From Myxococcota bacterium (GTDB lineage Bacteria > Myxococcota_A > UBA796 > CAJQPC01): a stretch of DNA of 63,661 nt. A program made the position numbers and the translations under genes. The stretch is from the NCBI GenBank assembly GCA_036229005.1, contig JAZAMN010000019.1, positions 1-63,661 of the forward strand, read 5' to 3'. The notes beneath the pieces are model-generated. The model was not told the DNA's origin. It saw only the letters and a list, made by a program, of their open reading frames with translations, and did not search any database. Of this stretch, positions 35,581 through 44,654 are shown one piece after another. Numbering within the stretch: position 1 is the first letter of the stretch; every line of letters begins with the position of its first letter.

Positions 35581-37272
35581 TCAGGGGGCCGGTGGGACCT
35601 TGTAGAGCCAGGCCCAGGTGCCCTCGCCGTCCTCGAGCGTGTCCACCAACTCCAGGGTCACCCCGCTCTGCTCCTGCGCCTTGTGCACCCGGCTCTTGGT
35701 GGGGCTGAGGTTGTAGCGCATGGGCGCGCTCGGCCGGATCAGCAGCAGGTGCTGGCCCTGAGCAAGGCGGAGCAGCTCCACCCAGGCCTGCTCGCGATCT
35801 GAGGCGTGGGAGACCGCCCCCCAGGCGTGGGTGGTCTGCAGCTCGGGCGCCCGGATCTCCAGCATCCCGTACAGGTCGTAGTCGCTGGCGACCAGACGGG
35901 TGACCTCGTTTGCGCGGAGGAGCTCGATCAGGTCGGACTGCCCAGACTCGGAGAAGGTGGGGACGCGACCGCTGTCCACCAAGCCATCGGTCCTCCTCAA
36001 GAGATCCACTCCGGGGAGCAGCAGAGGGAGGGAGAGGACCCCAGCCACCACACCCCGGGCCCAACTCTTGGGATGGACCCGCACGGCGGCCAGGCGGGTG
36101 CCCGCCAGACCGACCCAGATCGCCAGGGGAGGCGTGGCCTGCGCGAGGTGATGGAGGTCCCGGTTGGACAACCACAGCAGCAGGATCTGTAGCGGGACGA
36201 AGAGGCTCAGGATCCGCAGCAAGGCGCCGCAGCGATCCCGCCGAGGACGCAGCCACTCCAGGACGCTCCCGGCCAGCGCGACGCTCCAGCCGACCCAGCG
36301 CAGCCAGGCCAGGGTCGAAGGCCGCTCCCCCCCATAGGCTTGGGTCAGCCAGGCCAGGGGATCCCCGAGGTACCAGATCAGCGTGTTGGGGACCTCGCGG
36401 GCGGGGGCGCGCTCCCCGGAGAACAGCCCGCTCAGCCCGGAGAAGGCGCGCTCGAGCTGGAGGCCCAGGAAGTCGTGTGACTGGATGTGGCCCTGCGCGG
36501 GGACCTGGAGGCCGTGGTGCAGCCAGGTGACCCAGAGCGGCGCGGTGAGGAGCCCAACGATGCCTGCCAGGAGCGCCCAGGAGGGAGCGGGCGGTGGCTT
36601 GAGCTCGGGCCGGTCCCTGCGCGTCAGGAGCATGGCCAGGGCCCAGGCGAGGGCGGTGGGCAGGAAGGTGGCCTTGGCCAGCAGACCCAGCCCCAGAGCG
36701 ACGGCGATGGCGACCGCTCCGTGACGCCCGCCCGCCCAGCGACGGGACCAGCTCGCCCAGATGAGCAGCAGTCCAGCGGCCAACAGGAGCAGCTCGGTGC
36801 CCCCCAGCACCTTCCGGTAGAACACAAAGCCCCAGTCGCTGGCCAGGATCAGCGCGGCCAACCCTCCGGAGCCCGGGAGACCGTGGAAGCGCAGGAAGCG
36901 GTGCACCAGGACGATGAACAGCCCGCCCAGCAGCAGGTGGAGGGTCACCGCCCCGAGCTGCCCGCCACCGAGCGCAACGATGAGCCGCGAGGGCCAGTCG
37001 GGGAGGCCTCCGGTGTAGCTGTTGATCGCCAGGGGGAGCTCCACCGGCCCGAGCACCAGACGCTCGATGGGGCGCACCTGTGCGGCGTGCAGGGGGCCCC
37101 AGGCCCAGGAGTCGGCGAGTGTGCCCTGGAAGTCCACCAGGACTCGGGGAGGGGAGGGGAGGGACCAACCCAGGGCCACCTCGCCGACGATCCCCACCGC
37201 GTTCACCGTCAGGGCCCCCAGCACGGCGTAGAGCACCAGCGCGCAGGCGAGGAGAACAGGGGCCCGCCTCAC
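35581..37272 (-). CDS. Polytopic membrane protein, probable GT-C (ArnT/PMT-like) glycosyltransferase
   Basis: Many TM helices; INSYTGGL loop and LGLGLLAK motif typical of ArnT-like proteins; soluble C-terminal domain. Confidence 0.6.
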   Translation of the reverse strand: MRRAPVLLACALVLYAVLGALTVNAVGIVGEVALGWSLPSPPRVLVDFQGTLADSWAWGPLHAAQVRPIERLVLGPVELPLAINSYTGGLPDWPSRLIVALGGGQLGAVTLHLLLGGLFIVLVHRFLRFHGLPGSGGLAALILASDWGFVFYRKVLGGTELLLLAAGLLLIWASWSRRWAGGRHGAVAIAVALGLGLLAKATFLPTALAWALAMLLTRRDRPELKPPPAPSWALLAGIVGLLTAPLWVTWLHHGLQVPAQGHIQSHDFLGLQLERAFSGLSGLFSGERAPAREVPNTLIWYLGDPLAWLTQAYGGERPSTLAWLRWVGWSVALAGSVLEWLRPRRDRCGALLRILSLFVPLQILLLWLSNRDLHHLAQATPPLAIWVGLAGTRLAAVRVHPKSWARGVVAGVLSLPLLLPGVDLLRRTDGLVDSGRVPTFSESGQSDLIELLRANEVTRLVASDYDLYGMLEIRAPELQTTHAWGAVSHASDREQAWVELLRLAQGQHLLLIRPSAPMRYNLSPTKSRVHKAQEQSGVTLELVDTLEDGEGTWAWLYKVPPAP

Positions 37273-37881
37273 TCAGCGCCTCCGGGCAGTGAGCACCGTG
37301 ACCAGGGGGTGGAGCGGCTCCATCACGACCATGAAGCGCTCGTCGCGCTCCAGCTCCTCCATGACGCCTTGGGCGGACACGGAGCGCATCCAGCTTGGGT
37401 CAAAGAAGTCGGCCTCCACCTGCTCGGGGGGGATGGTCCAGAAGTGGTCGGCCACGACCAGCAGGCCGCCGACCGGCAACATCGCGTACAGCCGGTCCCA
37501 GAGGGCGCGGCGCTCCCGGTCGCTCAGTCCGGTGAGCGCACAGCAGGCCGTCACGTGGGTCAAGCCGAGCACGTGGGGGGGCTCCCGCAGGTCTCCGCAG
37601 CGCAGCTCCAGGTTGGCGGGCGCGTCATCCTGGGCCCGCTCCAACATGGCGGGGGAGATGTCGACGCCGATGACCCGTTTGACGTGAGGAGCCAGGGTGC
37701 GGGCGACGTTCCCGGTTCCGGTCCCCAGGTCCAGGATCACGTCGTCCGGCTCGGCCTCACAGCGGGTGAGCAGGACGTTGGTCGCGGTGTGACGCCACGC
37801 CGTGCCCACGTCGCCGGGGCCCTTGTCGTCATAGGTCGCTGCGCGGGCGTCCCAGAACTCGGCGAGCCGCTCCCGGCTCAC
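37273..37881 (-). CDS. Class I SAM-dependent methyltransferase
   Basis: FWDARAATYD, ILDLGTGTG, GVDISPAML, LPVGGLLVV; GTG start overlaps the cytochrome stop. Confidence 0.9.
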   Translation of the reverse strand: MSRERLAEFWDARAATYDDKGPGDVGTAWRHTATNVLLTRCEAEPDDVILDLGTGTGNVARTLAPHVKRVIGVDISPAMLERAQDDAPANLELRCGDLREPPHVLGLTHVTACCALTGLSDRERRALWDRLYAMLPVGGLLVVADHFWTIPPEQVEADFFDPSWMRSVSAQGVMEELERDERFMVVMEPLHPLVTVLTARRR

Positions 37882-39387: not shown

Positions 39388-39418
39388 AAAACCCCCAGGG
39401 CGCGCGGCCCCAGGGGTT
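39388..39418 (-). terminator. Terminator-like hairpin after (NAC)8 peptide gene
   Basis: Minus strand AACCCCTGGGG-CCGCGCG-CCCTGGGGGTTTT. Confidence 0.65.
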
Positions 39419-39448
39419 CGGTGTTCGAGCCCCGGAGGGCTCAGCCGC

Positions 39449-39628
39449 TCAGGCCCCGCAAGCGTTGCAGGCGTTGCAGGCGTTGCAAGCGTTGCAGGCA
39501 TTGCAAGCGTTGCAGGCATTGCACGCGTTGTCGGCGTTCTCAGCGTTCTCCTCGGCGTCCTTGTCACAGGCGACCAGGGCGAGGGCGGCGGTGGCAGCGG
39601 CGGCTGCGGCCATCAGCTTCGTGTTCAT
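39449..39628 (-). CDS. 59-aa Cys-rich lipopeptide with (Asn-Ala-Cys)8 repeat
   Basis: MNTKLMAAAAAATAALALVAC-DKDAEENAENAD-(NAC)8-GA*; GGAG RBS; lipobox LVAC; synonymous variation among 9-bp units. Confidence 0.85.
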   Translation of the reverse strand: MNTKLMAAAAAATAALALVACDKDAEENAENADNACNACNACNACNACNACNACNACGA

Positions 39629-39727
39629 TGGTTTCTCCATCTCGAGAGGGGCATCAGCGCCCACTCTCCGTATACCCGATGGAGTCTGGGTCGGTCGGTT
39701 TCGGGGACGCCAGGCGAAAGGACCCCG

Positions 39728-39769
39728 AAACGACAACACCCCCGAGGCACGAAGCCCCGAGGGTGTTGT
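39728..39769 (-). terminator. Terminator-like hairpin after (NAC)7 peptide gene
   Basis: Minus strand ACAACACCCTCGGGGC-TTCGT-GCCTCGGGGGTGTTGT-CGTTT. Confidence 0.65.
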
Positions 39770-39832
39770 TTGGCTGCGCTGTCGTCGCGCTCAGGCGGTG
39801 TGCCTGGCGCCGACGCTGACGCGTTTACCTTT

Positions 39833-40003
39833 TCAGGCGCCGCAGGCGTTGCAAGCGTTGCAGGCGTTGCAGGCGTTGCAAGCGTTGCAGGCGTTGCAAG
39901 CGTTGTCAGCGTTCTCAGCGTTCTCCTCGGAATCCTTGTCGCAGGCGACCAGGGCGAAGGCGGCGGTGGCGGCGGCAGCAGCAGCAAGCAGCTTGGTGTT
40001 CAT
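39833..40003 (-). CDS. 56-aa Cys-rich lipopeptide with (Asn-Ala-Cys)7 repeat (paralogue)
   Basis: MNTKLLAAAAAATAAFALVAC-DKDSEENAENAD-(NAC)7-GA*; GAGGAG RBS; lipobox LVAC. Confidence 0.85.
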   Translation of the reverse strand: MNTKLLAAAAAATAAFALVACDKDSEENAENADNACNACNACNACNACNACNACGA

Positions 40004-40234
40004 ATCGGGCTCCTCTCTTCTTGCGGTTACGCCTGCGGTCGGAACAGCCCGACTGCAGGGGAAGGGTGAATCCATCTTGTGGAGGGTCTCCACCGGATTG
40101 CGCCGCCAGACTATCGCAGCCCGCGGGGGCTGTCTACGTCTGGAGGCATCCCAGGACTCCGCACCATCATGCTCGGAGCGGTCTTGGCATGTCAAGACCC
40201 CTTGCCTGGACCCGCTTCGCGCTACGCTTGGGCC

Positions 40235-43568: not shown

Positions 43569-44654
43569 ATGTCCCTCATCGCCCTCGCGCTGCTCATTGG
43601 CTGTGACAACCTGGGCAGGAACCGCCCGGGTGACGAGCCCGTCGACGACTCCGGCCTGGAGGTCCTGGCCGTGGATGCTGTCCAGCCGAGCTACCTGACC
43701 ACGCTGGGCGGGCAGGTCGAGATCCTGGGCGGGCCCTTCGATGGAAGCGCACAGGTCACTCTGGACGCAGTCGAGGCCACGGTCCTGTCCGCCGAGGAGG
43801 ACCGCCTGCTGGTCGAGGTCCCCGCGCTCTCCGCCGGTTGGGTCGACGTGCGCGTGCAGACCGACTTCGGCCAAGGCGAGCTCGAGCGGGGCCTGCAGGT
43901 CTTCGAGGACGCCACGGGCCTGGCCGGGAGCTTGGGCGCGATCGAGTGGTACGAGCTGCAGGGGAGCTACTGGACCAACGACAGTCAGGACTTCGGGACC
44001 GCCTGGTTTGGCCTCATCGAGCCAGAGGAGGTGCACTGGTGGGACATCTTCGGGGTCGAGACCGACGACTGCACCGCTGACCCCAGCTTCCCCTCGCTCA
44101 AGCTGTGGGATCTGGGCGCAAGCGAGGTCACGCTGGCTGCGGACGGTGTGGAGCTCGAGCTTCAGGGCGCCTCCGACCGCATCTACGACGCAGCGCTGAG
44201 CAGCCAGCAGTACCTCGACTGGGCCGACTACTCCCTGCAGACTGTGGTGGGGAGCGAACTCCCGGAGTTTGGGATCGAGCGTGTCGGCGCCACCCCTGGC
44301 TCCTTCCAGCTCTTCACCCCTGCCGTCTACAGTGACGCTCCCCCCGTGCTCCGGAAGAACGAGCTGACCTTTGAGTGGGGAGAGGTCGAGGCGGAGCGGG
44401 TCATCGTGATGGCTGAGCGCCGATCTGGCGAGGACGTGGAGGAGATCCTGGAGACCGTGGCCTGCGTGGCGGAGAACGACGGGAGCTTCCAGATCCCCGG
44501 CTCCACCTGGCAGCAGGGCTGGGATTCGGACGACTGGCTCTACCTCTACGTCGGCGCGGTGCGCGAGGACGGGGGGACGATCCCCCTCAACAACGCGGAC
44601 TCCCGGGTGGCCGGTGTCTATTGGCTGCTGGGCGCGGCGACGACGAGCAAGTAG
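43569..44654 (+). CDS. Lipoprotein with IPT/TIG domain
   Basis: Signal MSLIALALLIGC; AVQP....GG.V.I.G..F IPT pattern; AGGAG RBS. Confidence 0.75.
   Translation: MSLIALALLIGCDNLGRNRPGDEPVDDSGLEVLAVDAVQPSYLTTLGGQVEILGGPFDGSAQVTLDAVEATVLSAEEDRLLVEVPALSAGWVDVRVQTDFGQGELERGLQVFEDATGLAGSLGAIEWYELQGSYWTNDSQDFGTAWFGLIEPEEVHWWDIFGVETDDCTADPSFPSLKLWDLGASEVTLAADGVELELQGASDRIYDAALSSQQYLDWADYSLQTVVGSELPEFGIERVGATPGSFQLFTPAVYSDAPPVLRKNELTFEWGEVEAERVIVMAERRSGEDVEEILETVACVAENDGSFQIPGSTWQQGWDSDDWLYLYVGAVREDGGTIPLNNADSRVAGVYWLLGAATTSK

Follow-up and report, generated by a model that had tools for sequence, protein, structure and literature searches.

What use might a bacterium have for two adjacent genes whose very short products end in an uninterrupted repeat of asparagine, alanine and cysteine? 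This question is raised by a 63,661-nucleotide contig of a Myxococcota bacterium (JAZAMN010000019.1), which as a whole is referred to here as the window. Comparison with related bacteria points to a real and apparently undescribed two-part system, made up of the peptide and a neighbouring pentahaem cytochrome. The evidence for the partnership is good and comparative in kind, and the mechanism that we put forward for it is a proposal. The features of the locus are collected in Table 1.

Table 1. Positions of the features of the peptide and cytochrome locus, numbered along the window.
Feature	Position	Strand	Remarks
Methyltransferase and PMT-like glycosyltransferase genes	35581..37881	-	Context; membership in the system not shown
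Pentahaem c-type cytochrome, 477 aa	37878..39311	-	PHC / MccSep / c552 family
Hairpin and short U run separating gene B from the cytochrome gene	39388..39419	-	z -4.8
Gene B	39449..39628	-	59 aa pre-lipoprotein; (NAC)8, then C-terminal GA
(Asn-Ala-Cys)8 array of gene B	39458..39529	-	
GC-rich hairpin 3' of gene A	39733..39769	-	z -3.9; presumed terminator-like or RNA-stabilising
Gene A	39833..40003	-	56 aa pre-lipoprotein; (NAC)7, then C-terminal GA
(Asn-Ala-Cys)7 array of gene A	39842..39904	-	
Predicted 5' leader, about 155 nt, structured	40004..40160	-	z -3.9 for 40004-40150; ends in CCGCAAG and the ribosome-binding site
Sigma-70-type promoter, TTGACA-18-CATGAT	40166..40195	-	10/12 consensus matches; 1 found against 0.1 expected

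Two genes for repetitive lipopeptides

Genes A and B are tandem duplicates (88% nucleotide identity over 170 nt) whose peptides differ at residues 6, 16 and 25 and by one repeat unit. The two paralogues described in the initial annotation could be re-derived from the sequence, as could each element it had listed: a GGAG-containing site upstream, an Ala-rich signal, the lipobox LVAC (with Cys21), an acidic spacer in the same three-residue register as the repeat, the array itself and the final GA. Both genes are also, as had been said, buried in longer frames that start with GTG. The predicted mature form of A has 36 residues with seven cysteines besides the lipidated one, that of B has 39 with eight, and aromatic residues are absent from both.

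The signal has the features of a lipoprotein, namely a basic N-region, a hydrophobic H-region and a lipobox with an invariant cysteine. Ala20-Cys21 is found in 20/20 family members and Val-Ala-Cys in 18/18. Position +2 is Asp in the window peptides and Gly or other residues in relatives; by the rule known from E. coli, Asp at +2 suggests retention in the inner membrane. Taken with the signs of expression described below, the genes probably encode abundant small lipoproteins that are predicted to be exported and lipidated.

The arrays are not chance occurrences. A six-frame search of the organism's own 6.4 Mb genome for at least five cysteines in a three-residue register returned ten arrays, two of which are genes A and B and two their opposite-strand shadows; the other six were judged by eye to be Arg/Pro-rich or short non-gene frames. 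Selection on the protein, as claimed earlier, is borne out by the codons: the first 33 of A and B differ by eight synonymous and three non-synonymous changes, and across 164 repeat units in 21 genes all four third bases are used for alanine. The first residue of the unit is Asn in 159 of these and Asp in five, while the invariance of Ala and Cys is circular as evidence because both were set by the search pattern. Orthologues carry from 1 to 11 NAC units in one to three gene copies. Selenocysteine was considered for the repeat and rejected, the TGA flagged inside some matches being a stop codon.

No family name was obtained for the peptides from Pfam or NCBIfam, in agreement with the initial annotation, and the best score in the Protein Atlas (0.83) fell under the useful mark. 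Searching 1.84 billion representatives with a profile brought up 17 proteins with an E value of 0.001 or lower, almost all of them similar small lipoproteins. A scan of genome contigs for the pattern ([ND]AC)3, which covered 20 of 64 parts, returned 120 loci, among them six complete or near-complete family lipoproteins and one fragment; the rest are, by eye, shadow frames or other repeats. The family occurs in records whose titles name Myxococcota, Deltaproteobacteria, an uncultured bacterium or the like. Searches of open-access text found no publication that pairs NAC or NPC repeats with a cytochrome; the supplements of the MNIO and MccSep papers could list such genes.

Two other genes carry the motif in a different setting. 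One (L033:417-980 in G019:C113) is a second NAC gene, away from the cytochrome, with a lipobox, (NAC)7 and then a domain of about 135 residues that has no NCBIfam or Pfam match. The other (L499; G001:C32, about 30100) is a lipoprotein with three spaced NAC motifs and a low-complexity Ser/Thr/Gly tail.

Promoter, leader and signs of expression

A near-consensus promoter lies 163 nt ahead of gene A, and TTGAC is found at a similar upstream distance in 54 of 64 orthologous loci, those with cysteine-free peptides included. A palindrome over the -35 box is conserved inconsistently and also occurs in some cysteine-free loci, so we claim no metal-regulator site. No riboswitch was recognised in the leader by Rfam for 13 loci at E up to 1. 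The sequence CCGCAAG, just 5' of the ribosome-binding site (window 39990-40010), recurs in many orthologues with or without cysteines.

Each peptide gene is followed by a strong hairpin. The one after gene A received no terminator call in a consensus scan, and the one after gene B would be expected to lower the transcript level toward the cytochrome gene.

GCT accounts for 13 of the 42 alanine codons in genes A and B, compared with 5.9% genome-wide (2314 long ORFs). In GC-rich bacteria, codon use of this kind typically marks genes with high expression. RNA libraries from two studies contain contigs that match gene A or its repeat at 95-100% identity, and one of them spans 39876-40060; gene B is not covered by such contigs. 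These runs are contigs, with a share of words of 0.09-0.11, and DNA carry-over is possible; the matches are compatible with transcription of gene A, short of proof. Elsewhere in the window, RNA-library contigs cover parts of the gene for a 2658 aa protein with MopE-like repeats (PF11617; 44775-52751) and of the TIG-domain lipoprotein gene that precedes it (43569-44654).

A pentahaem cytochrome next door

The cytochrome gene starts 137 nt after gene B. It encodes a protein with five CxxCH motifs, a membrane anchor at the N-terminus and an Ig-like domain at the C-terminus. Among proteins of known structure, the closest to it are the pentahaem cytochrome c552 of T. tepidum (5ze8; profile E 3.7e-17) and MccSep (9wt8; profile E 1.8e-8). 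A model of the protein superimposes on 5ze8 with Z 20.4 and an rmsd of 4.4 over 308 aligned residues. The match to NF040886 (E 5e-9) reaches 35.2 bits, far under the 250-bit cut-off.

MccSep, or ExtKL, is a polysulfide reductase of Geobacter sulfurreducens (PDB 9wt8) whose active site, haem 2, has Cys239 as a ligand and is served by Sec325 (PMC13510729). The PHC family includes the T. tepidum protein (PDB 5ze8; PMC11976967). The window cytochrome shares the five CxxCH motifs and the Ig-like domain with these proteins, matching both by profile and 5ze8 by fold. Unlike MccSep, it has the membrane anchor and carries neither Cys nor Sec at the two catalytic positions, where the profile alignment to 9wt8, a sequence alignment only, places Leu/Gln and Tyr/Thr. 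Its one extra cysteine lies in the Ig domain and is not conserved, and 77 of 79 metagenomic homologues (one of 80 loci was not extracted) have no cysteine outside the haem motifs. The cytochrome belongs to the PHC fold family without being an MccSep. Another difference is the peptide, since no such partner is mentioned in the sections of the MccSep and PHC papers available to us (PMC13510729, PMC11976967).

Other multihaem proteins are present in the organism: at least three CxxCH motifs occur in each of 13 ORFs of its genome, among them a second, distant pentahaem PHC-family paralogue (G000:C3:83235-84428, L318) with no NAC gene alongside.

The cysteines follow the cytochrome

The pattern and neighbour search that had been suggested for the peptides turned up conserved lipoprotein orthologues, and the cytochrome as the neighbour that tracks them. 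The peptide gene has a fixed place ahead of the PMT-like gene, which was present in 99 of the order's 154 genomes, with or without NAC, and served as the marker of the locus. Neither it nor the methyltransferase gene is retained as a part of the system, because neither tracks NAC. The peptide was identified in 70 of the 99 genomes; the other 29 were left out (peptide not found, contig end, or region not fetched), and a close match to the cytochrome is missing from all of them. In 40 of the 70 the tail has no NAC and is typically acidic and free of cysteine. Across the order, this locus encodes a small lipoprotein whose tail often has no cysteine.

One genome (G111) was omitted from scoring since a contig break hides haem 2. 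Among the 69 scored, an intact pentahaem cytochrome accompanies the peptide in all 30 with NAC; of the 39 that are NAC-free, 34 have no cytochrome at the locus and five have a degenerate copy. These five (L226, L262, L263, L264, L276) retain 2-4 haems and have lost haem 2 with its flanking segment. Their open frames are kept behind cysteine-free peptides, and the proteins may have taken on a non-catalytic role. Some of the 34 cytochrome-negative genomes give weak matches (E about 1e-17 to 1e-20), which were taken for the G000:C3-like paralogue without a case-by-case check. The haem-1 motif is broken and haem 2 intact in the cytochrome of G125, and G139 has NAC and the cytochrome with no marker gene.

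The trait switches at least ten times on the marker-protein tree, gain and loss being inseparable. Six independent pairs on the tree all point in the same direction (sign test p=0.031), six being the minimum number able to reach p<0.05, with a cytochrome coding chosen after the data were seen and two split or truncated genes set by hand. Automatic coding, which misses G019 and G124 for pattern reasons, gives p 0.03-0.06, and the test weakens to p 0.06 if the degenerate cytochromes are counted as present.

Individual genomes are instructive here. In G112, G114, G115 and G121 a rearrangement has separated the peptide and cytochrome genes, and both NACNAC and the intact cytochrome are kept. The order in G113 and G117 is a copy free of cysteine, a second copy that has a single NAC, and then the cytochrome. 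Single-NAC versions are kept with the cytochrome in these two and in G097 and G118, of which G097 sits among cysteine-free relatives on the tree. G094 counts against the pattern: its tail carries a second Cys outside any NAC, and the genome lacks an orthologous cytochrome. Across the order, the cysteines appear and disappear together with an intact cytochrome.

The possibility that the NAC tail and the cytochrome merely travel together as one transferred cassette has the adjacency of the genes in most loci and the position of G097 in its favour, and is nonetheless highly improbable given that the pairing outlasts rearrangement, that haem 2 is lost where Cys is absent though the gene stays, and that different N[PA]C carriers flank the same cytochrome in other classes.

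Repeats beyond the order

A close cytochrome (E 1e-115 or better) was found in 13 of 257 genomes of the phylum outside the order, and 12 of these 13 have ten or more triple N[PA]C matches. That many matches occur in only 2/229 genomes without the cytochrome, both read as other repeats, and in 1/15 with distant 6-8-haem relatives, most of which have no arrays; as the genomes are related, this tally is not an independent count. The array is mostly Asn-Pro-Cys here, and in 10 of the 13 it is carried by an adjacent SoxA/TsdA-like cytochrome, two metagenomic homologues of which match Pfam SoxA/TsdA. This carrier is an unnamed monohaem protein with a conserved MVxFC motif and up to 29 NPC units on both sides (L462-L473, L374, L377, L389, L393), the usual neighbour of the pentahaem cytochrome outside the order. 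A tblastn search gave no convincing match to it in the organism's own genome. In G046, from a family without the peptide locus, the pentahaem cytochrome stands beside a monohaem cytochrome that ends in four NPC units.

Metagenomes give a more mixed picture. An N[AP]C repeat gene is present in 21 of the best 80 of 553 cytochrome loci (from a scan of 38 of 64 parts), against 0/150 for control chunks of the organism's own genome. Seven of the 21 encode NAC-type lipopeptides, with mixed NAC/NPC units in two, and the other 14 are NPC-type, either free or fused to SoxA/TsdA-like or P460 cytochromes. The mixed peptides link the two repeat forms. The remaining 59 loci have no repeat gene in the fetched flank, the only part searched; they include a clade of 33 rows, for many of which about 4 kb upstream is covered. 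Likewise G294 (93% complete) has the cytochrome and no array genome-wide. These 59 loci and G294 count against an obligate link between cytochrome and repeat.

A proposed thiol arm for the cytochrome

Since the cysteines track the intact cytochrome across related bacteria, the peptides likely supply reactive thiols that the enzyme lacks. That cysteines and haem 2 disappear together is most simply explained if the peptide thiols work at haem 2. We therefore propose, and give an even chance, that the (Asn-Ala-Cys)n tail is a lipid-tethered thiol arm which the cytochrome would contact and oxidise or reduce, and which possibly carries sulfane sulfur. The lipidated peptide and the membrane-anchored cytochrome would both face the periplasm. 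A peptide cysteine could then enter the haem-2 pocket in place of the MccSep-type Cys239/Sec325, and the cytochrome would shuttle electrons between its haem chain and the CxxC thiols by dithiol/disulfide or persulfide turnover. More repeats would give such a store of thiols or sulfane sulfur, which could be recharged, a higher capacity.

Against the thiol arm stands an invariant Met close to haem 1-2, which could fill the haem-2 axial site and leave no room for a thiolate; the structural model has no haems. A prediction of the complex of the cytochrome, four haems and the mature peptide scored 0.00, with the fold of the peptide uncertain, and so speaks neither for nor against the arm. The redox buffer offered by the initial annotation comes close to this best reading, although the annotation missed the pentahaem cytochrome directly downstream that tracks the cysteines.

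A wider version can be suggested more tentatively, and we would sooner expect it to fail than to hold. It is that of a split sulfur/thiol oxidoreductase: a widespread cytochrome subfamily would have given up its own catalytic Cys and Sec, and N[AP]C arms would provide them in trans. Here an ordinary abundant lipoprotein would have had the arm grafted onto it, as a lipid-tethered poly-thiol store at the membrane that the enzyme recharges. On this version, the unannotated NPC and NAC repeats of many bacteria would gain a function.

SoxY offers a known parallel: it is a folded domain with a single-Cys C-terminal arm that ends in GGCGG, and it works with SoxZ. Like SoxY with SoxAX or TsdA, the peptide would present a flexible cysteine arm to a periplasmic haem enzyme, and NPC arrays elsewhere are fused to SoxA/TsdA-like cytochromes. 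Unlike SoxY, it has many cysteines, a predicted lipid anchor and neither GGCGG nor the folded domain, and the peptides have no Pfam match to a SoxY domain. SoxY itself (PF13501) was not found in the organism's own genome (94% complete), which counts against the thiol arm. That genome does contain a dihaem SoxA/TsdA-domain lipoprotein beside a dihaem c4-like protein (G000:C55:18084-18341, L450), a pair that we take to resemble TsdAB, the TsdA label coming from motifs. The pair hints at thiosulfate/tetrathionate chemistry in the organism.

Other explanations

The peptides lack the testable membership features of metallothioneins and MNIO RiPPs as well as of SoxY, and explanations built on other known systems fare less well than the thiol arm.

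A metallothionein-like chelator would use the CxxC array to bind a soft metal such as Cu(I) or Zn at the membrane, with the cytochrome setting the oxidation state of metal or thiol. Bacterial metallothioneins are small, Cys-rich and free of aromatic residues. The peptides resemble them in all three respects, with 7-8 Cys in 36-39 residues, and their copy number and repeat number vary as a capacity trait would. Lipidated copper-binding peptides also exist (PMC13056109). Unlike metallothioneins, the peptides are predicted to be exported and lipidated, have a strict three-residue repeat and no His, and are tied to a cytochrome. We consider this explanation unlikely, and the stand-alone chelator of the initial annotation is not favoured, because the single-NAC versions, which alone could form no metal cluster, are kept with the cytochrome, because no metal transporter or metal regulator is seen among the conserved neighbours, and because the promoter is common to cysteine-free orthologues. 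In addition, 20 family members matched no metallothionein family model in Pfam or NCBIfam at E up to 1, a search in which low-complexity peptides can be filtered.

The peptide might alternatively be a structural envelope lipoprotein that, in its cysteine form, is knit into a mesh by disulfide cross-links, the cytochrome being a dedicated oxidase. Lpp is an abundant lipoprotein of this kind and chlamydial OmcA a Cys-rich example; the ancestral-type locus, cysteine-free with a strong conserved promoter, looks much like such genes. CdeC of C. difficile also has a short Asn-X-Cys repeat (6-NPC) and self-assembles partly via disulfides, but it is, unlike the NAC peptides, a spore exosporium protein of 405 aa from a Gram-positive with no haem partner (PMC7677010). 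A mesh seems quite improbable when one or two cysteines are enough in several lineages, and elsewhere the motif is fused to cytochromes of a soluble type (SoxA/TsdA-like, P460, monohaem c), which suggests a part in redox chemistry and not in a scaffold.

A RiPP-type precursor, whose NAC core an unlinked MNIO or the cytochrome would modify for good so that a lipidated product results, is very doubtful. Repeated Cys motifs behind a lipoprotein signal are a likeness to the short peptides of DAG-RiPPs, oxazolins and bufferins (PMC13056109), and a methyltransferase gene follows the cytochrome in several loci. Unlike in those systems, the motif is NAC, CPxCG and EGKCG are absent, and the methyltransferase occurs in cysteine-free loci too and is missing from several NAC loci. 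The organism has three MNIO genes, all on other contigs, and an MNIO is found in 98 of the 154 genomes, many with cysteine-free peptides, and was not found in the NAC-positive G003 and G011 (95% complete). As MNIO genes neither flank nor track the repeat, the RiPP-like precursor of the MNIO type suggested earlier is not favoured. One of the organism's MNIO genes (G000:C48:19792-23609, L001) has a partner-like gene and three more behind it, and none of the ORFs listed there is an obvious precursor peptide; the two more divergent ones are on C71 and C7.

Implications

What we describe is an unnamed repeat, buried by gene callers in false ORFs, that is tied to a specific enzyme subfamily and to one of its haems. 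The bacteria themselves provide a natural series with built-in controls, running from 0, 1 and 2 up to 11 units, with the cytochrome intact, lacking haem 2 or absent. If the thiol arm is correct, many PHC-family cytochromes that have no catalytic thiol would gain a function, and periplasmic S-S chemistry would extend beyond Dsb, Sox and MccSep.
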